From Methanotrichaceae archaeon (lineage in GTDB: Archaea; Halobacteriota; Methanosarcinia; Methanotrichales; Methanotrichaceae), in contig CAVWIG010000023.1 in NCBI GenBank assembly GCA_963754945.1, forward strand, positions 1 to 64,000: DNA of 64,000 bases, written 5' to 3'. Positions 51,832 through 64,000 of the stretch are shown here, piece after piece. Within the stretch, counting starts at the first letter, position 1, and each line of letters starts with the position of its first letter. Both the position numbers and the translations under genes were made by a program. The notes beneath the pieces were generated by a model. The model ran no database searches, had not been told where the DNA came from, and saw nothing but the letters and a program-made list of their open reading frames with translations.

Positions 51832-52059
51832 TTGTTTAGAAGTGATGGAGGATCTTCCATGGGCGGATCCGATCCAGCTGCTCCGGTAGAAGCTGGAAAA
51901 GAGTACGATGTTGAGATTCAGGACATAGCCCGTGAAGGCGATGGCATTGCTAGAATTGAAGGATTTGTGATCTTCGTACCCGATGCAAAAGTCGGTGACA
52001 AGACCAAGATCCAAGTCGACAAGGTAATGCGCCGTTTCGCTATTGGCCATAAGGTTTAA
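51832..52059 (+). CDS. Single-TRAM-domain protein
   Basis: MFRS... start matches 8569 paralog; GGTGA RBS. Confidence 0.92.
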   Translation: MFRSDGGSSMGGSDPAAPVEAGKEYDVEIQDIAREGDGIARIEGFVIFVPDAKVGDKTKIQVDKVMRRFAIGHKV

Positions 52060-52088
52060 GACGATTTTCGTGAAGGAAGGTGAAGGTT

Positions 52089-52307
52089 TTGTTCAGACGT
52101 GAAGAGGGCTCCTCCATGGGCCAAGCTGCGCCCGTCGAGGTCGGAAAAGAGTACGATGTCGAGATTCAGGACATAGCCCGTGAAGGCGATGGCATTGCTA
52201 GAATCGAAGGATTTGTGATCTTCGTACCCGAGGCAAAAGTCGGTGACAAGGTCAAGGTTCAGATCGACAGGGTAATGCGGCGCTTTGCTATTGGTCACAA
52301 GATTTGA
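52089..52307 (+). CDS. Single-TRAM-domain protein, tandem paralog
   Basis: Near-identical DNA to the preceding gene. Confidence 0.92.
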   Translation: MFRREEGSSMGQAAPVEVGKEYDVEIQDIAREGDGIARIEGFVIFVPEAKVGDKVKVQIDRVMRRFAIGHKI

Positions 52308-52381
52308 GCTGAGAAAATTTGTTGCTGCTTTAAGGTTTCTGGTTCTTCGAACCAGGCCCAAAATATTTGTTTACAGCGTTT

Positions 52382-53530
52382 TTATAGGTTCTTCAGCACT
52401 GCTTCCAGATCTACCAGGAACAGATTGATGTTCTCATGGGTCATGTGCGGCATCAGTATTAACCTGAGCGCCCTATTTGGCTCTCTGGTCATGGAAACAT
52501 GCCAACCACGCTTGATAAGCTCCGATCTTACTACGGATGTCGATTTAACCTTGAGAGCAACCACGTTCATTACCGGCTCGATGACCGGATTTATGCCAAT
52601 CTGTTTTGAGCCTGCTACAAGGTGTCTGGTCAGATCCATGCAGTAGCTGACCACTTTCCTGAAACCCGACCTTCCAAGATGAATCATGACAGCATAAGTG
52701 GCTGCTGCTGCTGCTCCGCTCCTGGTACCTGTGAGCGATGCCTGCCTGGCAACAGTCAAGTAGTGCGTGTCAAGCTCCAAGGCGTTCATGTCCCTAAACG
52801 TCCTGAAGAGCAGGCCGCCTGCAGGTATGGTGCTCATGCCCATCTTGTGAGGGTCAATGGTGATTGAGGATACACCGGCAACACGGAAGTCCCATCTGTA
52901 ATCTCTGTCCAGGAATGGAAGCACAAACCCGCCAAAAGCTGCGTCCACGTGAAGGTGGATCCCTCTATCCTTGGCGATCTTGGCCAACTCGTCGATGGGG
53001 TCAACTTGACCAAACTCTGTTGTACCTGCTATCCCGACCACAGCCACTGTTCGATCGTCCACCAACCGCTCAACGGACGATATGTCCACGCTGAGATTTT
53101 CATCAAGATCGGCCTTGCGAACCTCCAGGTTGAGCAGATCCCCGATTTTGTCGAAGGAGAAATGGGCGGAGGCTGGGACAACTACGTTGCCATCTCTCAC
53201 GCGCGATGCGCTCCTTGCGGCCCTGATGGCCTGGATATTGGACTCAGTGCCGCCGGTGGATATGTATCCCACTGCATCGGGACATCCCAGAAGGTCTCCC
53301 ATAATACTGATTGTCCGGGCTTCCAGCTCGGCTACTCCCGGGAATAGTCCCGGATCGCCAAGGTTGGTCTCCAAAAAGAGGTTGTGCGCCTTGACCGCGA
53401 TTGAGTGCGGCCTGGTGCACATGGTGGAGAAGAACCTGTCGTACTGCAGGTCCCGGCCCTTCATATCCTCCAGGATCCTGAGGACCTCTTCCTCCGGAAT
53501 GGAATCCTCAGGAAGAGAATTCTCCATCAA
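52382..53530 (-). CDS. mfnA: L-tyrosine/L-aspartate decarboxylase
   Basis: MCT.PH, NLGDPGLFPG, GGTESN, HVDAAFGG, DPHK. Confidence 0.94.
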   Translation of the reverse strand: MMENSLPEDSIPEEEVLRILEDMKGRDLQYDRFFSTMCTRPHSIAVKAHNLFLETNLGDPGLFPGVAELEARTISIMGDLLGCPDAVGYISTGGTESNIQAIRAARSASRVRDGNVVVPASAHFSFDKIGDLLNLEVRKADLDENLSVDISSVERLVDDRTVAVVGIAGTTEFGQVDPIDELAKIAKDRGIHLHVDAAFGGFVLPFLDRDYRWDFRVAGVSSITIDPHKMGMSTIPAGGLLFRTFRDMNALELDTHYLTVARQASLTGTRSGAAAAATYAVMIHLGRSGFRKVVSYCMDLTRHLVAGSKQIGINPVIEPVMNVVALKVKSTSVVRSELIKRGWHVSMTREPNRALRLILMPHMTHENINLFLVDLEAVLKNL

Positions 53531-55803
53531 CTTTTATCCCTCACCGCCTTCAGCATCAGGATCTTCTCTGCTCGGGCCACTGTCTCCCTGACAACAGCAA
53601 CCGCATCGATATTAGCGGATATGCTGGTGATGCCTATCTCGACCAAGCGCTTGGCCATCTCCGGGTAGGATCCAGCCTGTCCGCAGATGGAGGTCTTGAC
53701 TCCCGCCTCGTTGCACCTCTCAACGACGTACTCTATCTGCTTGAGTATGGCAGGATGTAGCTCAGTATAAAGTCCGGCTACGTTTTCGTTGTTCCGATCG
53801 ACGGCCAGGGTGTACTGGGTCAGGTCGTTGGTCCCGAAGGAGACGAAGTCTAGGCCGTCATCGATGAAGTCTTCGATGGTAAGGGCCGCTCCTGGAGTCT
53901 CCACCATTATCCCCACATCGATCTTCTCCAGGTCCAGGCCTTCGTCGATCATTATGGCCTTGGCAGCCCGCAGCTCGCGGACGTGCTGAACCATGGGCAG
54001 CATTATTCCAACGTTGGTCAACCCTATTTCGTGCAGCTTCTTGAAGGCTCTGACCTCCAACCGGAAATGATCAGTCTCGACCAGGTCTCTGCGAATGCCG
54101 CGCCAGCCAAGCATTGGATTGTGTTCGACCGGCTCGCCCTCGCCGCCCTCCATTGCCCTGAACTCGTCCGTCGGGGCATCGAGAGTCCTGACCCAGACCG
54201 GCCTGGGATAGAATGCATCGGCGACTGTCTTGACGCCCTTGACCAGCTCGTCGATGTACTCCTCGGTCTTGCTGTTCTTTATGTACCAGTTGGGGGTCTT
54301 GCCTAGGCCGAGGATCATGTGCTCGATTCTGAGCAGCCCGACGCCGTCCGCCAGAGTGGCAGCAGCCGCTTGAGCGCGATCGGGCTCGCTGATGTTGACC
54401 TTGACCTCCGTCGCGGTAATTGGCTTGGACACCATGACGACTGCCCCAGACGCGACCGCCGGTTTGGCCGACTCCGGAGCGGCAACGCGGCCCTCGTAGA
54501 CCATGCCCTTGCTTCCATCGACCGTAACTTCCATACCGTCTTGTAAAACCGAAGTTGCCTTCTTGGTTCCCACAACAGCCGGGCAGCCCAGCTCTCTGCT
54601 GACTATTGCCGCATGACAGGCCATGCCGCCCTCATCGGTGACTATTGCTCCGGCCCGCTTCATTCCGGGAACCATGTCTGGCATTGTCATCTTGGTAACC
54701 ATGATGTCGCCCTGCTTGATCTTGCCCAGATCCTTTCCGGCGGTGATGAGTCTTACGATACCTGTAGCCACGCCGGGGGATGCTCCCAAGCCCGTTACCA
54801 GTATCTTGCCTTTGACGGCTGCTTCCGCAGCAGGCTTTTTACCATTGTTAATCGTTGTTATTGGCCTGGACTGTAGAATGTAGATCTTGTTCTTCTCCAC
54901 GCCCCATTCGATGTCCTGGGGAATTCCATAGTGTTTCTCGAGGATCTCGGCATAGCCAGCAAGTTGGAGAATCTCGTCATCCGTCAGCACGACTGCCTCT
55001 CTCTTTTTAGCCGGGACCTTGATGGTGACAGTCTTCAGGGATTTGGGGTCGCGTAAGATCTGGATCTCCTTGGCAGCGATGAACTTGCTCACTATGGTCT
55101 TCTTGGTCCTGTCGACAACGTAGTTGTCAGGAGAAACGGACCCGCTGACCACTGACTCGCCTAGACCCCAGGCTGCCTCAATGACAACTTGGGGTTCGCC
55201 TGTGCTTGGCTGTGAGCTGAACATCACTCCTGACTTCTCAGAGTCAACCATCTTCTGGACGATGGCCGAGAGGTTGACCTTCTCGTGATCGAAGCCCTGC
55301 TCAACCCTGTAGAAAATGGCCCTGGCTCCGTAAAGAGATGCCCAGCACTTCCTGACCGCCTCGAAGACCTGATCCGCTCCGCGCATGTTGAGGTAGGTTT
55401 CTTGCTGGCCTGCGAAGCTTGCATCGGGAAGGTCCTCTGCTGTTGCGCTAGAACGAACCGCCACGAAAACCTCCCTGCCCTCGCGCTTAGACAGTTCTTC
55501 GTACCGGGAGCGTATGGCCTGTTCGATGTCCTTGGGGACCTTGGCATCCATGATCAGCTTCTTGGCCTCTGCTTCTGCCTTGAGAAGCTGGGACTGATCG
55601 TTGACATCCACCTTTAGAGCATCAAAGAGCTTCTTTGAGATGCCAGAGCGATTGATGAAATCCCTGAAAGCCTGAGCCGTTACGGCAAAGCCTCCTGGAA
55701 CTGGCACATCGATGTTGATCATTTCACCGAGGCTTGCGCCCTTCCCTCCAACAGTGGCAAGGTCCTCCTTGCCAACTTCTTCCAGCCAAACAACAGCGTC
55801 CAT
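53527..55803 (-). CDS. ppsA: Phosphoenolpyruvate synthase
   Basis: VGGKGASLGE, AVRSSATAEDL..ASFAGQQET, CHAAIVSRE, SFGTNDLTQ. Confidence 0.96.
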   Translation of the reverse strand: MDAVVWLEEVGKEDLATVGGKGASLGEMINIDVPVPGGFAVTAQAFRDFINRSGISKKLFDALKVDVNDQSQLLKAEAEAKKLIMDAKVPKDIEQAIRSRYEELSKREGREVFVAVRSSATAEDLPDASFAGQQETYLNMRGADQVFEAVRKCWASLYGARAIFYRVEQGFDHEKVNLSAIVQKMVDSEKSGVMFSSQPSTGEPQVVIEAAWGLGESVVSGSVSPDNYVVDRTKKTIVSKFIAAKEIQILRDPKSLKTVTIKVPAKKREAVVLTDDEILQLAGYAEILEKHYGIPQDIEWGVEKNKIYILQSRPITTINNGKKPAAEAAVKGKILVTGLGASPGVATGIVRLITAGKDLGKIKQGDIMVTKMTMPDMVPGMKRAGAIVTDEGGMACHAAIVSRELGCPAVVGTKKATSVLQDGMEVTVDGSKGMVYEGRVAAPESAKPAVASGAVVMVSKPITATEVKVNISEPDRAQAAAATLADGVGLLRIEHMILGLGKTPNWYIKNSKTEEYIDELVKGVKTVADAFYPRPVWVRTLDAPTDEFRAMEGGEGEPVEHNPMLGWRGIRRDLVETDHFRLEVRAFKKLHEIGLTNVGIMLPMVQHVRELRAAKAIMIDEGLDLEKIDVGIMVETPGAALTIEDFIDDGLDFVSFGTNDLTQYTLAVDRNNENVAGLYTELHPAILKQIEYVVERCNEAGVKTSICGQAGSYPEMAKRLVEIGITSISANIDAVAVVRETVARAEKILMLKAVRDKS

Positions 55804-55926
55804 TTTGAAACCTCCACCTGACAAGTCTGCCCGACCATCCAGCTATTACAATATATCAAGGTTTCACAGGGTATATAGGATATATACAAAAGGATAATAT
55901 CCGCGCCGGCATTTCCCTGACAGACC

Positions 55927-57087
55927 ATGTTCAAGCGATTCATGTGGGCAATGGAGGCCCTGGAAGCCCTGTTAGGAATTATTCAGCCAACCAATGCCCA
56001 GGAGCACATTCCCGTACAAGATTCTGTTGGAAGGGTATTATCCGAGGGGATCGTCTCGGCCGTCGATCTTCCAGAGTTCAACCGCGCGGCCATGGACGGA
56101 TATGCTGTCAGATCCAGCGACACCAGGAGCGCGAACACCACCAACCCGGTCTATCTCCACCTAGGCGAGAACGTCACGCAGGTTCGAACCGGCATGGCCG
56201 TGCCCGAAAACTTCGATGCCGTTGTCATGCTCGAAGAGACTTTTTTGCGCGGAAACCGAGTGGAGGTCATGGGCGAAGTTCATCCATTTCGAAACGTCTC
56301 TCGGATAGGCGAGGACATCGCCATCGGGGATTTGATCTTCGAAGGGGGACACAGGATTCGACCGCCTGACATCGCCCTGCTGGCGGCCCTGGGTATAAAA
56401 GGGGTTTTTGTGTACGCGCGACCCAAAATTGCCATTCTGCCTACGGGCAGCGAGCTGGTGGCTATAGGCGCGCGGTCGCTCTTACCAGGTGAAGCATACG
56501 AGATCAACGGGCTCATGGCCCGGCTTTACGTGGAGAAGTGGGGCGGTCTGGCTACGGTGCACGACATAGTCCCTGATGATCCAGAGCTGATCCGCGCGGC
56601 CATAGAATCAAACCTTGACGCAGACATGATAATTCTCATCGGCGGCACGTCCGTTGGAGAGAAAGACTACGCTCCGAAGGTCCTGGCAGAAATGGGCCAA
56701 TTGCTGGTTCACGGAGTGAGGATCCAGCCCGGGAAACCAACAGCCTTCGGCTCTGTCCAGGGCAAACCCGTGGTCTGCCTGCCTGGCTATCCTGTAGCTG
56801 CGCTTGCCGACCTTTACCTGTTCGTCAGACCGGCTCTAAAAAAGCTGGCTCACCTTAACGATGCTGTGCCTAAGACCACTGCCAGGCTTGCTCGCAAGAT
56901 TGCCTCCAAGACCGGCTATCTGAGCATTGTCAGGGTCAAAATCGATGGCGAAATGGCAATGCCAATCATGACCTCAGGCGCGGGCATTCTCAGCTCGGTA
57001 GCCAGGGCCGATGGCTTTGTGATCGTGCCTGAGGAGCTGGAAGGGATCGAAGCTGGAGAGACGGTTGAAGTCATGATGATTGAATAA
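55927..57087 (+). CDS. moeA: Molybdopterin molybdotransferase
   Basis: F.RAAMDGYAV, TGSEL, GGTSVG..D, PGKP, LPGYP. Confidence 0.93.
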   Translation: MFKRFMWAMEALEALLGIIQPTNAQEHIPVQDSVGRVLSEGIVSAVDLPEFNRAAMDGYAVRSSDTRSANTTNPVYLHLGENVTQVRTGMAVPENFDAVVMLEETFLRGNRVEVMGEVHPFRNVSRIGEDIAIGDLIFEGGHRIRPPDIALLAALGIKGVFVYARPKIAILPTGSELVAIGARSLLPGEAYEINGLMARLYVEKWGGLATVHDIVPDDPELIRAAIESNLDADMIILIGGTSVGEKDYAPKVLAEMGQLLVHGVRIQPGKPTAFGSVQGKPVVCLPGYPVAALADLYLFVRPALKKLAHLNDAVPKTTARLARKIASKTGYLSIVRVKIDGEMAMPIMTSGAGILSSVARADGFVIVPEELEGIEAGETVEVMMIE

Positions 57088-57300
57088 TTAAAGTGTCCGG
57101 CCTCAACTCAAGGTACATTCCATCTTCCTCAACCTCTCCGGTTTCCTGCTCAATTACTCTGGGAATCCCGAAGGATTGCATATTGGAAGAGAAAGATTCG
57201 TACCGATATTGCCTAAGTCCAACGCCCAAGCGCCGCAGAAAAGATTAAAGGCCTCCTAGAATCCGTTTATGAATCAGGGAGGACCTTTGGTTGATCTTCC

Positions 57301-58047
57301 TTAATTGTTCTTGCCTTTTCCTTGATTGCCATGGTCCCCTTGGTCTCCTCCATTGCCTCCATTTCCTCCCGAAGACACGAATGTCCCATGGTCAAAGCCA
57401 TTGGAGCCAAAGAATCCGGGGAAGTTGTTGTAATATGGCATCTGATAGTAGGAAGGAAGCAGGTAGTAGTTCACTGGCGGCACATAAGTTCCTGTTACAT
57501 CTATGATCACGGTATTGCTTACCTGACCGTTTATGCCGAAGGAAAGGACGTGACGTCCTATTGTGTCAGCATAGAATGTGAACATGCTGTACGGGAAGAA
57601 GTAGAAGTTTGAATTGTACATAGATCCGTCCGGGCGTATTTCATTGAGATATCCGTTTCCTCCGGTTGGCGAGACGGCCAGGAGAGACACCGATGCACCC
57701 TGGGGAATCGCAGCGTACTGTGCCCAGTCGGTTGCACCTTGAATCCACAAAGAGTAGACTCCAGTGTTGGCTGGATTTGACATGTACTGTGGATAAGGTA
57801 CAGCCTGATTCAGAGTGCTGAAGTAAAGGTAGGACGGCAACTTCCCGGTTATATCAAATTGCGCTGGGGCACTTATATGAGTACCAGGAACAGATCCTGG
57901 CATCGTATAATACTCTGCGTACTGCGAAGTCGCCCCCACCTGAACCGTGCTCGGACTAGAAGACGTTGCATACTGCCCTTGGGCCCCGAACGAACTTACA
58001 AAAACGATCAGGACCAGCAAGGCCGGGAAAAGTCTGGATAATTTCAT
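57301..58047 (-). CDS. Intact secreted member of the WxQGATxWxQY...ADxxGRH family
   Basis: Signal peptide; LWIQGATDWAQY, FYADTIGRHVL; G/N-rich tail. Confidence 0.8.
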   Translation of the reverse strand: MKLSRLFPALLVLIVFVSSFGAQGQYATSSSPSTVQVGATSQYAEYYTMPGSVPGTHISAPAQFDITGKLPSYLYFSTLNQAVPYPQYMSNPANTGVYSLWIQGATDWAQYAAIPQGASVSLLAVSPTGGNGYLNEIRPDGSMYNSNFYFFPYSMFTFYADTIGRHVLSFGINGQVSNTVIIDVTGTYVPPVNYYLLPSYYQMPYYNNFPGFFGSNGFDHGTFVSSGGNGGNGGDQGDHGNQGKGKNN

Positions 58048-58298
58048 AGTTCTATGCTCCTATTGTCGATTATTAGTATTAATAATAGGCCTCAAAGGAA
58101 TAAATAGATTTTGAATTTTTTTGACTGTTTGGGCGCAATTTTTGTCCATTCAATTTTGATGCGGCACAAAAATAACAACAACCTCCTAAGGTTTTTACCC
58201 AATTGTGATACAATCTTATCTTGGCTGAGGAACCAGAGGAATCGAATAACGATAGACTATTTGATTAACGCAACCTAATGAGCCAAGATCAAATGAGT

Positions 58299-59569
58299 GG
58301 CAGTGTAACGATTTTTCTGTACTTTGATAATAAGAATGATTATCGGCCCTGTATCCTATCCAATCTTGAGAAAAGGAGGACACAGGACCATGATACCCAT
58401 AGCACTCTTGGAAGATTACCTTATCGATCAGGAAGATGGACTAAAGAAGCTTCTGACCTGGTTCTTGAACCTTGTAATGCAGCTAGAAGCGGCGCAACAG
58501 GCAGATGCAGAACCGTATCAGAGAGTCGAATCCCGAAAGGCACATAGGAATGGCTACAAGGAAAGATCTCTGAAGACGCGAGTTGGAGAGCTCCGACTCA
58601 AGAAACCTCAATTCCGTGAAATTTCCTTCGAAACCAAGGTGTTCGACAGATTTTCGCGCGTAGAGAAGGCTTTGGTCAACGCTGTACTCGAATCGTATCT
58701 CCAGGGGGTTTCAACCAGGAGAATCCAAGATATTGTCTCTCGATTTGGCATCGAGAATTTATCTGCCTCTAGCGTTTCCAGGATATCCAAAGAGCTTGAC
58801 GAGAAGGTAGAAGAATTCCTGAAGAAACCTATCGAACGTCCTATTCCTTATCTTTATGTAGATGCAAGCTACTTCAAAGTAAGAACAGAATCAAGATATG
58901 TTACCAAAGCTTTCATGATCGTCACAGGTGTTAGAGATGACGGTTATCGCGAGATACTTGGCGCAAGAATAGCTGACAGTGAAGATGAACTCTTCTGGTC
59001 GGGATTATTTCAAGATCTGGCGGATCGTGGGTTGTCCGGAGTAAAGCTCGTGATATCAGATGGTCATAAGGGAATCCAGAAAGCGGTTGAGAAATCATTT
59101 CTTGGTGCTTCATGGCAAATGTGTCACGTTCACTTTTCAAGAGCGGTCTTGAGAAACGTTGCCAAGAAGTATCATAAGGAGATCGCCGATAAGATCAAGA
59201 TCGCTCGGAAAGACGAAATCAAGATACAGGACTTAGCGAAAGAATTGAGGGAAAGAGGTTATGCGAAATCTGCTGACACTATCGACCGCTTCAGATTCAG
59301 TCTGTGGAATTACAGGGCATTCCCCAGAGGTCACTGGAGAAGGATTCGGATGACAAACGGGCTGGAGAGGATCAACAAGGAGCTGAAAAGAAGATCCAGG
59401 GTAGTCGGTGCCTTCCCAAGTGAGAGCTCGTTCATGAGGTTAGGGGTTTCGATCCTCATCGATATCAACGAAGAATGGCTGACCGCTAAAAAGTATTTAT
59501 CTATGGATGCTGATTGAGTATGTTGGGATACAGGGCAACTCCAAATTACAGAAATCTCGGCACACTACC
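58299..59569 (+). mobile_element. IS256-family element
   Basis: Imperfect TIR GGCAGTGT..GATTT.TCTGTA / TACAGAAATC..ACACTACC; 8-bp TSD AAATGAGT. Confidence 0.92.
58390..59517 (+). CDS. IS256 transposase
   Basis: RNGY..R, Y.QGVSTR, Y.DA, ISDGHKG, CHVHF, TN.LER.N.E.KRR. Confidence 0.95.
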   Translation: MIPIALLEDYLIDQEDGLKKLLTWFLNLVMQLEAAQQADAEPYQRVESRKAHRNGYKERSLKTRVGELRLKKPQFREISFETKVFDRFSRVEKALVNAVLESYLQGVSTRRIQDIVSRFGIENLSASSVSRISKELDEKVEEFLKKPIERPIPYLYVDASYFKVRTESRYVTKAFMIVTGVRDDGYREILGARIADSEDELFWSGLFQDLADRGLSGVKLVISDGHKGIQKAVEKSFLGASWQMCHVHFSRAVLRNVAKKYHKEIADKIKIARKDEIKIQDLAKELRERGYAKSADTIDRFRFSLWNYRAFPRGHWRRIRMTNGLERINKELKRRSRVVGAFPSESSFMRLGVSILIDINEEWLTAKKYLSMDAD

Positions 59570-59749
59570 AAATGAGTTCCATAGGATAGAATAGATGGAT
59601 GAATATGATATCTTTAACATTCGTCGCTGACTTTGTTATCTAAAGAAAAAGAACGGTGCCCACTAAATGCCGCTTTACCGATAAACAAGTAGACTTGATT
59701 AAAATAAGGTATCGTTGATTTAATATACCCAGACGGCCAGGCATAGATC

Positions 59750-60791
59750 ATGTCCAACTGGATCTACCCTGATTTTGAGTTCAAGCCCAAGAGACCGCTC
59801 TTCATGTGCATCATGTCCAACACCGACACAGGCAAGATTCCCGGAATAAGCGCCGCAGGAACAACGCCATATCTCACAGACTACACCCCAGGTGGAGACG
59901 CCGAGCTGGTAGAGACGAATAAGATAATTACCATGCCCGAGCTGCCCGAGGCCCCGGGCGGCTCGCCGACGCCCGCCATAGTGACAAAGGCAGCCCTCAA
60001 CCTTTCAGGCATACCTTCCCTATTCGTTGCCAGCGGCCTGCGAGTAAAGCCTGCGGTTCCCTTCATGGAGATGGGAGGATCGCCAGGGCACGACATCCGG
60101 AACGAGAGCGCTGTTGAGGGCGTGGAGGGCATATACCAGAGGGCGGAGCTGGCTGGCAAGAAGCTGGCTAAGCTCTCCGACTGCGTCTTCATAGGCGAAT
60201 CTATCGCCGGCGGGACGACCACTGCTCTGGCAGTCCTGAAGGCCCTGGGGTACGATGCAAACGTGAGCAGCAGCTTTGCCACTAATCCGGTGGAGCTGAA
60301 GCAGAAGGTAGTGGTTGAGGCCATGAAACGCTCCGGGATATCCTTGGGCGGTTTTAAGAACGATCCACTGCGGGGCCGTGGCCGAGATGGGTGATCCCAT
60401 GATGCCCTGCGCCCTGGGCCTCATGAAAGGGCTGAAGGGAACAAAGGTGGTCATGAGCGGCGGAACGCAGATGGCAGCGGTCCTAGCGTTGGCCAAGGCC
60501 ATGAACATAGAAGGCGACATATCCATAGCCACCACCAAGTACATCGACGATGACAAGAGCGCCAGCTTCCGCAAGATCGTGGAGGAGACTGGCCGGCCTT
60601 ACTACTTCTCTGATCCTGGCCTGGAGAGGTCAAAGATTCCACCAGTCCAGATATATGCCCAAGGGTATGTAAAGGAGGGCGTAGGCATGGGAGGAGCCGT
60701 CCTTGCTGCCAGCCTTTACGGCGTCACACAACAGCAGATAGTGGAGGAGGCCGACCGCGTTCTGATGACCGTGGAGCTGCCTAAGAAGTGA
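59750..60791 (+). CDS. cobT: Archaeal-type nicotinate-nucleotide:lower-ligand phosphoribosyltransferase, split by +1 frameshift at G4 60372-60375
   Basis: IPGISAAG, YTP..DAE, PTPA.VT, GESI.GGTTTA, GDPM, GGTQM.AV, G.VKEGVG.GG. Confidence 0.88.
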
Positions 60792-60818
60792 AGGAAAGTT
60801 CCCATTTTTTTGCTTGAT

Positions 60819-61853
60819 ATGAAAGCAGCTGTTTTGAAGGCCCCGGGCATTCTTGAGCTAGAGGACCTCCCCGACCCGGAATGCCCGAAGGGTGGTGCCC
60901 TAATCGAGGTTAAGGCCTGCTCCGTTTGCGGAACGGATGTCAAGATGCTCCAGAAAGGCCACAAGGACCTCGTTTATCCCCGGGTTCTGGGCCACGAGAT
61001 CGTCGGCGAGATCGCTGAGATCGACCAAGAGTGCAACATAGTTGAGGGAGACTTAGTCCAGGTCTGGCCCGGGATCGCCTGTGGCATATGCAGGCCCTGT
61101 CTTCGAGGAAATGACAACCAGTGCGAGAGAATGAAGATCCTCGGCTTCAATCGGGATGGCGGTTTTGCCGAGCTTGTCGCCCTGCCAAAAGAGTGCATTT
61201 CCAGAGGCATGAACTTGATCGACCGCCGTGCGATCAACCTTGACGTCATCTCCCTTGCCGAACCGTTAGCTTGCTGCTTAAACGGCCAGGAGTTGACGGC
61301 GATCTCGGAAGGCGATGTCGTTCTCATAATCGGCGGCGGACCCATCGGATGTCTTCATGCCGTCCTGGCAGAGCTGCGTGGTACAGAAAAGATAATAGTA
61401 GCCGAGAAGCTGGAAAACAGGATCGGTAAAATCAAGAGACACACAGCTTGCAGAGTATTGGATGTCTTTCTGCCATTGCAAGAAGCCGTCTTCGAGGAAA
61501 CCCACGGAAAAGGCGTAGACGTGATCCTGATGGCTACGCCAGAGGTCGGGATCGATAACTCTCTGTTAAAGCTGCTGGCTCCCGGAGGAAGAATATGCAT
61601 CTTTTCAGGTCCCAGATCAGGAGACTATGAAAGGACGATAGACATCAGGTCTATGCACTACAGGGAGTTGACGATTGTTGGAGCCTACGGATGCTCCAGT
61701 CGCCAGAACAAGCAGGCTGCACAGCTGCTTGCCTCAGGCGCTTTAGACGTCGACTGGATCATAACAAAGAGGACTAACCTTGAGAATATCGGGGAAGCAT
61801 TGGACCATTCTTCAGAGAGAAGAGGACTGAAAGCTGTAATTAATGGGGTTTAG
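60819..61853 (+). CDS. Zn-dependent NAD medium-chain dehydrogenase (sorbitol/threonine DH-like)
   Basis: CGTD, GHE, CxxCxxC-x7-C, EPL, GGGPIG. Confidence 0.9.
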   Translation: MKAAVLKAPGILELEDLPDPECPKGGALIEVKACSVCGTDVKMLQKGHKDLVYPRVLGHEIVGEIAEIDQECNIVEGDLVQVWPGIACGICRPCLRGNDNQCERMKILGFNRDGGFAELVALPKECISRGMNLIDRRAINLDVISLAEPLACCLNGQELTAISEGDVVLIIGGGPIGCLHAVLAELRGTEKIIVAEKLENRIGKIKRHTACRVLDVFLPLQEAVFEETHGKGVDVILMATPEVGIDNSLLKLLAPGGRICIFSGPRSGDYERTIDIRSMHYRELTIVGAYGCSSRQNKQAAQLLASGALDVDWIITKRTNLENIGEALDHSSERRGLKAVINGV

Positions 61854-62990
61854 GTGTTTTCTATGGAATCTATGGAAGAAAAGATGATGTATTTCGGAAA
61901 TAAGGTGGATTCGTTGATAAAGGGCCTGAACCTTGACAGGTCGGAAGCCAGGGAGTTGTTTTGCCAGATTCTTCTGAATGTTCAGCCCGACCTTCAGCAG
62001 GGGGCATTCCTGGCGGCAATTACAGCCAAGGGCGCCACCCCTGAGGAGATCGCTGGAATATGGGAGGCGATTTACGAAATAGATACAGTCAAAGTCTGCC
62101 CGGAAGTCGACGGTCCACTTGTGGAAAATTGCGGAACGGGGATGGACGCCATCAAGACCTTCAACATCAGCACTGCCGCATCGATAGTGGCCGCATCCGA
62201 CGGCATAATAATGGCCAAGCATGGGGCCAGAGCTATAACATCGAAGTGTGGGGCAGTGGACATCCTGGAGGAGCTGGGCGTCGACGTGGAGTGCGATGTC
62301 GCCCTGGTAAAGAAGAGCATCGAACACGCTGGCATCGGCATCTTCAACGGCATGAGCGGCAAAGTTCACCCTCAGGCCCTTTACAGGATTTTGTCTCAGA
62401 TCAGATTTGGGACTATCCTCAACATCGCTGGGTCCCTGGCAAATCCGGCCCTGCCTACGCTCGGCGTACGGGGCGTCTATTCCAGAGAGATGGTGTTGCC
62501 CATAGCCAGGGCAATGAGAGAGATCGGCTACCGCAGGGCCTTTGTGGTCCACGGGCTCTGTGCCGACGGGACAAGGGGCATGGACGAGATATCTACCCTG
62601 GGAGAAACCATAGCTGCCGAGCTGAACGATGACGGTGAGATAAACGAGTTCACCATCTCCGCCAGAGAGATGGGCATCGAAAAAGGTGATGAGACGTCGA
62701 TTCTCCACCAGGCAGACAGGAAGAGGGAAGCCGTGAGGCTTCTAAGGATACTGTCCGGCGACGAAGTCGGCCCCAGGAGAGAGATCGTCTGCCTGAACGC
62801 AGCCCCAATCCTCTACATCGCAGGCCATGCCTCTGACATGCTGGATGCCACAGAGAAGGCCGCTGAGATCATAGACAGCGGAAAGCCCATTGATAAGCTG
62901 AAAGCATGGGTATCGGAACAAAACGCGAATCCGGGAGAGCGACTTGAACACCTTGAAGAAATGCTCGATCTGGCCTCCACCGAATCGTGA
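61854..62990 (+). CDS. Anthranilate phosphoribosyltransferase-like protein (divergent)
   Basis: CGTGMD..KTFNIST, AKHG.R, GMDEIS, LNAA. Confidence 0.85.
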   Translation: MFSMESMEEKMMYFGNKVDSLIKGLNLDRSEARELFCQILLNVQPDLQQGAFLAAITAKGATPEEIAGIWEAIYEIDTVKVCPEVDGPLVENCGTGMDAIKTFNISTAASIVAASDGIIMAKHGARAITSKCGAVDILEELGVDVECDVALVKKSIEHAGIGIFNGMSGKVHPQALYRILSQIRFGTILNIAGSLANPALPTLGVRGVYSREMVLPIARAMREIGYRRAFVVHGLCADGTRGMDEISTLGETIAAELNDDGEINEFTISAREMGIEKGDETSILHQADRKREAVRLLRILSGDEVGPRREIVCLNAAPILYIAGHASDMLDATEKAAEIIDSGKPIDKLKAWVSEQNANPGERLEHLEEMLDLASTES

Positions 62991-63067
62991 CTTTCTTTTC
63001 GACATCTTTTTTTTAAAAAAATTTTAATATTATTAAATATTAATGTTCGGCTGAATAAGTCATTCGA

Positions 63068-63174
63068 CAACGTTCAATTGGACAAGTCGTTCTAGAAAAT
63101 TTAATCCTAACGAAGGCGAATTTTCTAGTAGTGCTCACCAAATTCGTGCTGAGTTAGTTGTGTCCGAGATGTTG
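63068..63174 (+). ncRNA. Candidate structured RNA (three-way junction)
   Basis: Nested stems with G-U pairs on + strand downstream of an AT-rich TATA-like tract. Confidence 0.4.
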
Positions 63175-63251
63175 CTGGGCGCAAAATTTACTTAATCGTC
63201 TGCAGTACAACAAGAACAAGCAAGGGAAATATCCGTAATCGTAGCTAAGAT

Positions 63252-64000
63252 ATGAGATTTTACATAGAAACCTACGGGTGCACATCAAACATGGGGAACT
63301 CGATGGATGCAGCTTCTGCCCTGATCAGCCTTGGGCACCGGCCATCCAATATCGAAGAAGCCGACATAATAATAGTGAACACCTGCGCAGTTACCCAGAA
63401 GACCGAAAATAAGATCGTCAAACGCCTGCACCAGCTTCCCCCGGATCGTCTGATCATTTCGGGTTGTCTTTCTACTGCCATCCCAGGGTCAACGGAACAA
63501 ATACCATGCCGCAAAGTAATGGGCCGGCTGAACAGATCCTCGGCCTTGGAGATGGTTCGTTCATTAGGCGACGAGTTATCAGGCCATCCTGCTTCGAACA
63601 ACCCTTATAATTTGATTGCTGATAAAAAGGCCGTTCATGACGTTATCGCCCCTGAACACCTCTGCGCCATTATAAACATCGCCGAGGGCTGCCGGGGCAG
63701 ATGCAGCTACTGCATCGTTCGAAGGGCCAGGGGAAAGCTGGTCAGCCGCAGTCCGAAGGATGTTGTCGAGCAAGCTCGGTCTATGGTCGATTCTGGAGCT
63801 GTCGAGCTGCAGCTTGCAGCGCAGGATACCGCCGCCTATGGACTGGACATCGGCTCCAGCCTTCCCGACCTTCTGAACAGGATTGTCGAGATTCCCGGTA
63901 GGTTCATGGTAAGGGTGGGGATGATGAACCCGGACACAGCAAAGCCTATCATGAACGAACTGATCGAGGCCTTAAGAAGCCCAAAAATCTACAAGTTTCT
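63252..64000 (+). CDS. MiaB-like tRNA methylthiotransferase (t6A37, archaeal type), runs off the window
   Basis: IETYGCTSN, VNTCAV, ISGC, I.IAEGC.G.CSYC, QDT.AYG.D, RVGMMNP. Confidence 0.92.
   Translation, partial: MRFYIETYGCTSNMGNSMDAASALISLGHRPSNIEEADIIIVNTCAVTQKTENKIVKRLHQLPPDRLIISGCLSTAIPGSTEQIPCRKVMGRLNRSSALEMVRSLGDELSGHPASNNPYNLIADKKAVHDVIAPEHLCAIINIAEGCRGRCSYCIVRRARGKLVSRSPKDVVEQARSMVDSGAVELQLAAQDTAAYGLDIGSSLPDLLNRIVEIPGRFMVRVGMMNPDTAKPIMNELIEALRSPKIYKF

Follow-up and report, generated by a model that had tools for sequence, protein, structure and literature searches.

A TrpD-like transferase and a zinc-dependent dehydrogenase as a probable, apparently undescribed unit of cobamide assembly in anaerobes

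The stretch of 64,000 nucleotides analyzed here (the window; contig CAVWIG010000023.1 of a Methanotrichaceae archaeon) carries at positions 59750–62990 three co-oriented genes, assigned by profile searches to an archaeal cobT, a zinc-dependent dehydrogenase of the medium-chain dehydrogenase/reductase (MDR) type, termed ADH in the following, and a TrpD-like gene. An earlier note on this DNA had proposed the three as a module for the lower ligand, i.e. the base, of cobamides, and the arrangement is borne out by the open reading frames (ORFs) and their profile matches. Since the TrpD-like gene and ADH stand behind B12-sensing RNA switches or are fused to CobT in many anaerobes, it is very probable that they act in cobamide assembly, in what is apparently an undescribed, widespread module of known enzyme families with new specificity. 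TrpD* is used as a working name for the TrpD-like paralog; the name TrpD2 is unsuitable because it already denotes the YbiB family, which lacks the motif for phosphoribosyl pyrophosphate (PRPP) and is less than 20% identical to TrpD, as stated in the part of PMC9835598 dealing with it. The features of the locus are:

59750–60394, plus strand: 5' frame of an archaeal-type cobT, 214 amino acids (aa), TIGR00303 E 2.5e-60, genuine CobT to about 60370
60370–60373, plus strand: extra G in a run of G, splitting cobT (from frame comparison with relatives and public contigs)
60378–60791, plus strand: 3' frame of the archaeal-type cobT, 137 aa, TIGR00303 E 1.2e-27
60805–60811, plus strand: T7 tract in the gap between cobT and ADH, by sequence a possible archaeal terminator-like signal
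60819–61853, plus strand: ADH, an MDR enzyme dependent on Zn and NAD, from the threonine/polyol dehydrogenase group (PF08240 and PF00107), with an upstream TTG at 60810
61863–62990, plus strand: TrpD-like paralog (TrpD*), 375 aa from the ATG at 61863, in an ORF that opens with GTG at 61854 (PF02885 and PF00591)
63007–63014, plus strand: T8 tract 3' of TrpD*, by sequence a likely archaeal terminator

The gaps quoted earlier, 27 nt between cobT and the ATG of ADH at 60819 and 0–9 nt between ADH and TrpD*, were recovered, as was the oligo-T tract behind the last gene, and no trp gene is present among the ORFs at 52000–64000, the span scanned for such genes. The genes, gaps and motifs described in the earlier note therefore stand, but it overlooked the splitting of cobT, the T7 tract and residue R178 of TrpD*, and it took for a triad what is consistently linked as a pair. 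An archaeal cobT is indeed present, though in two frames separated by the extra G. Owing to the frameshift, each frame stays below the TIGR00303 cut-off (204.5 and 97 bits against 240); jointly they cover profile positions 7–332, and residues 1–208 of the 5' frame are 81% identical to intact relatives of 346 aa. Since all four public contigs covering the site (from three of four runs) have one base fewer at 60370–60373 and cobT is a single ORF in 39 of 40 cobT-bearing loci, the extra G is probably an assembly error, or else private to the strain. Searches of the source genome (88% complete) found no second cobT. Given the T7 tract, it is uncertain whether cobT is transcribed together with the pair. 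A scan for bacterial promoters and terminators gave results at chance level.

TrpD* passes the TIGR01245 family cut-off (269 against 199 bits) and is 36% identical to the canonical TrpD of the source genome. With TrpD (EC 2.4.2.18; PDB 9UCW, 1KGZ, 1ZVW) it shares the fold and the GTGxD, N-x-S-T, KHG and DE motifs, and the translation contains GTGMD, TFNIST, KHGA, DE and HPQALYRILSQIRFGTILNIAGS just as they had been quoted. Residue counts refer to 244 aligned clade members, that is the query and the top homology-search matches of 330–420 aa. Residues G94, G96, D98, N104, H123, D244 and E245, which serve PRPP and Mg, occur in 244/244, whereas the acceptor side departs from TrpD: the fourth residue of GTGxD is Met and not Gly, the canonical Asn is replaced by Ala or Ser at position 125 in every member (244/244), and Leu180 takes the canonical Arg position, as mapped by sequence alignment, again in 244/244. 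The earlier reading that Arg is missing from the position contacting the anthranilate carboxylate is thereby upheld. KHxN is retained in 68 of 71 canonical TrpD proteins used as control, and in TrpD of M. tuberculosis R193 and N138 bind the carboxylate of anthranilate, according to the relevant section of PMC9835598. New invariant residues relative to TrpD are N165, R178 and S194 (each 244/244) as well as S168, R178 being located two residues ahead of the canonical Arg position in all 244 members. With the PRPP/Mg residues invariant and both carboxylate-holding residues uniformly replaced, the alignment argues that TrpD* has kept its PRPP site, has lost the anthranilate site and is under strict selection for a different acceptor instead of decaying.

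The AlphaFold model of TrpD* (pLDDT 89.8) has the TrpD fold (Z 43.1, rmsd 1.8 over 325 residues) and lies further from AMP and thymidine phosphorylases (Z 25–29). Its score for AMP phosphorylase is 38 bits against a cut-off of 535, and the C-terminal hammerhead domain of nucleoside phosphorylase II is absent, the 375-aa protein ending in helices in the model. TrpD2/YbiB is likewise a paralog with TrpD fold encoded outside trp operons (Z 25.8), but TrpD* differs from it in retaining the PRPP motif and scores 31 bits with NF006005 against a cut-off of 185. In a quick-search tree with midpoint root, built from 33 selected members of the clade together with 36 canonical proteins, TrpD* and canonical TrpD are separated by a branch with SH-aLRT 100. 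More divergent sister branches of the clade (P0123, P0127, P0141, P0144, P0166, P0252) carry the acceptor-site variants GTGAD, GTGSD and KKGA, and some genomes have two TrpD* copies (G541 on C9 and C17; L043 and L060, under the same title of a metagenome-assembled genome).

That TrpD* could be an ordinary second anthranilate phosphoribosyltransferase, standing beside cobT by chance, is suggested by the TIGR01245 score, by its database name TrpD and by eight Methanomassiliicoccales genomes in which it is the only TrpD-like match. None of these eight (0/8) has TrpC over the cut-off, which both control genomes have, so that TrpD* is retained where TrpC is missing. It is, moreover, not the only trpD of the source genome, where a canonical copy forms part of a trp operon (contig C19). 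Together with the loss of both carboxylate residues, the B12 regulation and the CobT fusion described below, this leaves such a role hardly credible. By its substrate-binding features TrpD* does not belong to TrpD, although its working mode is probably TrpD-like.

Residues C40, E63 and E151 of ADH and four structural Cys residues are present in 116 of 116 dehydrogenases that partner TrpD*. In common with Tdh, sorbitol dehydrogenase and IolM, ADH has the fold, the catalytic and structural Zn ligands and an acidic NAD-specifying residue (E199). It differs from them in its low identity, in passing no NCBIfam cut-off (only the Pfam domains PF08240 and PF00107 are recognized), in a Lys45 that replaces the His of Tdh in 113 of 116 partners, and in a family-specific GHRDLxxPR loop. 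Among proteins of solved structure its best relatives are Tdh and some putative dehydrogenases, at most 30% identical (fold TM about 0.85), and with TIGR00692 for L-threonine 3-dehydrogenase it reaches 161 bits against a cut-off of 458, three orthologs also remaining below. Current annotations, TrpD for TrpD* and iditol/sorbitol dehydrogenase for ADH, misname both proteins. As the models contain no membrane segment, both look soluble.

At least 543 of 600 stretches were confirmed in a genome scan, the best 80 being taken as genome loci; these are not independent because about half belong to Methanotrichaceae. TrpD* and ADH are no more than 0.7 kb apart in 77 of the 80, the three misses falling at contig ends; the same distance applies to 55/55 genome loci with full flanks and 54/66 metagenome loci, against 0/14 loci of canonical trpD examined as control. 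A cobT is found within 2.5 kb of TrpD* in 44/80 genome and 17/66 metagenome loci. The fixed unit is therefore the pair of TrpD* and ADH and not a triad with cobT; the linkage put forward for all three genes recurs in other genomes, for cobT only in part. Gene order and CobT type vary: Methanotrichaceae have archaeal cobT-ADH-TrpD*, ANME-1 and Syntrophoarchaeum the reversed bacterial cobT-TrpD*-ADH, and one locus (L084) with archaeal-type CobT has ADH-TrpD*-transporter-cobT, so that two unrelated CobT types occur as neighbours of the pair. A role outside B12, in pterin or p-aminobenzoate metabolism, might be read from a folP-like gene, which lies within 4 kb in 19/80 genome loci (mostly of Methanomassiliicoccales) and a short distance upstream in L084 and L126. 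This neighbour is, however, mostly restricted to a single lineage and encoded on the opposite strand, appears in 1/66 metagenome loci and leaves riboswitches and CobT fusions unexplained; we regard a pterin role as very improbable.

In nine metagenome loci a single ORF directly 3' of TrpD* joins ADH and CobT (in one, L145, it ends at the contig edge). A profile built for this fusion found both domains in 120/120 among the matches listed, Desulfobacterota where named; F or Y, which has been linked to a preference for benzimidazole, precedes a conserved Pro in all 120 fused CobT domains, and no weight is placed on it here. Two Dehalococcoidia genomes have the order cbiZ-cbiB-cobD-[riboswitch]-ADH-TrpD*-cobT-cobS-cobC-cobU, the genes being named after their translations and their resemblance to Pfam-typed neighbours, and btuFCD, cobU, cobQ and cbiB adjoin the pair in L106, L119 and L114. 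Adjacency to cobT as mere synteny was considered: for Methanotrichaceae it is plausible, since further neighbours are conserved there as well, but it is rejected overall by the CobT fusions and nucleotide-loop operons.

In nine loci a CblS-like gene is divergent from the pair. In ANME-1 and related archaea a fusion of a ribbon-helix-helix (RHH) domain with a CblS-like (alpha-ribazole kinase) domain (L096:5535–6455, minus strand; Atlas score 0.95) is mostly divergent from the pair; its cluster is also present in L101–L103, L109–L111, L115 and L118, and similar genes in L230 and L232–L234. It is a candidate for an alpha-ribazole-sensing regulator that would take the place of the B12 riboswitch in archaea. 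Several loci have a conserved ORF of roughly 70 aa that separates TrpD* from ADH or ADH::CobT (L134:9056–9280; also L125, L149, L152, L158, L163, L181). It has no Pfam match, belongs to Atlas clusters labelled 'hypothetical' from Thermodesulfobacteriota, and is a possible third subunit.

The dehydrogenase and its neighbours also bear on the aminopropanol(-phosphate) linker, which might be made without PduX if a Tdh-like ADH acted on threonine or aminoacetone with TrpD* as helper. Threonine 3-dehydrogenases are among the nearest solved relatives of ADH, cbiB-cobD lie directly upstream of the pair in L188, L225 and L226, and EC 2.7.1.177 is absent from D. autotrophicum and D. propionicus, two possible carriers of the pair, in the relevant part of the supplement to PMC6461909. 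On the other hand, ADH stays far below the Tdh cut-off, the fusion partner seen is CobT and not CobD or CbiB, and there is no known route by which a PRPP transferase could serve the linker step. We consider a linker function improbable.

Cobalamin riboswitches (RF00174) couple the bacterial pair to B12. Of 20 bacterial loci picked because no B12 gene was seen nearby, 19 have such a switch upstream in the same orientation, as do 11 of 13 loci chosen largely for their B12 context (the sequence of the other two begins at the gene) and 5/5 Dehalococcoidia loci. Transcriptome papers on Dehalococcoides reportedly describe a riboswitch-led unit DET0125–0128 as induced by low B12 without giving a function, so that B12 regulation of the pair may already be in print. 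The cobamide link seen by the earlier note is thus supported by ADH::CobT fusions, riboswitches and placement in nucleotide-loop operons, and its term 'lower-ligand module' holds, through genomic coupling and B12 regulation, as a class of function rather than for any particular reaction.

Acetoclastic methanogens, ANME-1 and sulfate reducers have the pair, and so does Dehalococcoides mccartyi, a dechlorinator; named matches of TrpD* further include Methanothrix soehngenii, Desulfosporosinus youngiae, Formimonas, Syntrophobacterales and Desulfobacca. TrpD* was found in 16 of 24 family relatives and in 0/16 genomes of two other families, in 13/301 genomes of the phylum, 43/81 Methanomassiliicoccales and 6/151 Dehalococcoidia; a plasmid search gave canonical-level matches only (best about 35% identity). 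Among the Methanomassiliicoccales, cobT is present in 42/43 genomes with TrpD* and 27/38 without, the p value of 0.001 being overstated because kin genomes are not independent.

The same genomes bear on a possible regeneration of CobT's donor, in which TrpD* would convert nicotinate and PRPP to nicotinate mononucleotide (NaMN) as a non-orthologous PncB, or an alternative donor would be activated by ADH. TrpD chemistry yields beta-ribotides such as NaMN, the invariant R178 could hold a shifted carboxylate, and PF04095 apparently excluded TrpD* (0/43 versus 15/38). The exclusion proved to be an artefact that disappeared in a search with NF006415. Donor regeneration is weakened since a second family of nicotinate phosphoribosyltransferases (PRK08662 type) is over the cut-off in 43/43 TrpD*-bearing Methanomassiliicoccales and 5/5 Dehalococcoidia; furthermore, the source genome has a PF04095-family PncB-like gene, and ADH would be left unexplained. 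It appears decidedly improbable.

For the pair as a whole, a dedicated nucleotide-loop assembly unit that supplies CobT with its base is the function towards which we lean, if only slightly. BluB, BzaAB/BzaF-CDE, CblTS and ArsAB are likewise encoded ahead of cobT in B12-regulated operons, and a BluB/CobT2 fusion in propionibacteria parallels the ADH::CobT fusion; because the pair is located where bluB or bza genes sit and shares this type of fusion, base supply is the suggested role. The pair would then occupy the place held elsewhere by bluB or bzaF/bzaAB. TrpD* would transfer phosphoribose from PRPP to an aromatic amine without ortho-carboxylate, the NAD-dependent ADH would oxidize the sugar of the adduct, and the product or its ring-closed form would be the base that CobT re-attaches as alpha-ribotide. 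As to the chemistry, we tentatively prefer, as the simplest possibility rather than an expectation, that an amine of the o-phenylenediamine type is N-ribosylated and that oxidation and ring closure lead to a benzimidazole whose C2 stems from ribose C1'. Such a route would be an oxygen-free counterpart of BluB chemistry. Maggio-Hall et al. (2003) are reported to have provided a precedent for this type of chemistry. The amine is probably scavenged, since Dehalococcoides carries the pair and yet needs added 5,6-dimethylbenzimidazole (DMB).

The pair could also run towards base recovery: TrpD* working in reverse would release base and PRPP from a beta-ribotide or N-ribosyl-arylamine and pyrophosphate, ADH would first convert an N-ribityl or otherwise altered sugar, for instance from flavin breakdown, and CobT would re-attach the freed base as alpha. 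The genomic evidence for this is identical to that for base supply; neighbours with salvage functions (cbiZ, btuB/btuF, the CblS-like gene), the occurrence of the pair in cobamide auxotrophs and the fold common to TrpD* and AMP and thymidine phosphorylases speak for it. Because the fold is nearer TrpD (Z 43) than the phosphorylases (Z 25–29) and the complete synthetic PRPP/Mg motif set is retained, we think recovery unlikely.

Several observations weigh against base supply by TrpD* and ADH. Only 35 of 55 well-flanked genome loci have cobT near the pair, the 20 without it including loci of Methanomassiliicoccales. Archaeal loci are without riboswitch (0/6), and no Rfam riboswitch was found in the window or six other loci (three bacterial by title). 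Fusion and adjacency would fit an ADH serving CobT's base, its donor, or simply the same operon. Some bacterial partner dehydrogenases have Glu replacing the Zn-binding His. Genomes bearing the pair have one to three ThiC-family copies, so that the pair is no replacement for ThiC-like Bza enzymes. We know of no biological source of o-diamines. Finally, D. mccartyi, in which the pair is present, requires added DMB for cobamide remodelling (PMC11321594, in the passage concerned), which rules out full de novo base synthesis in this organism.

Two broader proposals were not upheld. Replacement of bzaF/bzaAB by the pair left no pattern in ThiC-family copy number, ThiC and BzaF being counted together. 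A universal route to 5-methylbenzimidazole through the pair is unsupported: makers of this base are M. soehngenii, D. propionicus, D. autotrophicum and A. fulgidus, and a family that we infer from dsrA (in 41/58 genomes) to be Archaeoglobaceae has TrpD* in 0/58.

In Pfam and NCBIfam profile searches no homology was seen between the pair, a PRPP transferase plus an MDR dehydrogenase, and BluB, BzaAB/BzaF-CDE, CblTS or ArsAB. The determinants given in the pertinent section of PMC6461909 are only bluB, bza, arsAB, cblS/T and cbiZ, and 42% of predicted bacterial producers are reported there to lack a known base determinant. A full-text search, outside which most subscription journals fall, found no paper ascribing a role in cobamide synthesis to a TrpD paralog or to the dehydrogenase of the pair. 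Since the base determines which microbes and enzymes can use a cobamide, the pair is of interest as a concrete two-protein candidate for a missing step, and with both proteins apparently soluble according to their models the question is directly testable. If the o-diamine chemistry, held here only as a possibility, applies, the pair would constitute a third benzimidazole route, independent both of oxygen (BluB) and of radical-SAM chemistry (BzaAB/BzaF), in which the imidazole ring is built with an aryl diamine and C1' of ribose as its sources. The orphan bases benzimidazole and 5-methylbenzimidazole of Methanothrix and sulfate reducers might then stem from it, and Dehalococcoides could produce a base of its own once it has scavenged a precursor. 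Should a cheap precursor feed the pair, this would be relevant to the supply of B12 in cultures for bioremediation.

Some further observations concern single genes and neighbours. Partner dehydrogenases with Glu for His (PRxPGEE) are those of L139, L151, L155, L159, L160, L166, L168–L170, L172 and L179. A second ThiC-family gene is cut off after about 135 profile positions (L201:1288–1933; G000:C13:71839–72240) beside thiM/thiE-like genes, one full ThiC remaining. An IS256-family transposase at 58324–59517 of the window ends 232 nt upstream of cobT and stands between it and the moeA/PEP-synthase block that precedes cobT in several relatives. An AI-2E-family membrane gene follows TrpD* in 33/80 genome loci; it is absent from the window at 62990–63252, where a MiaB-like gene comes directly next.

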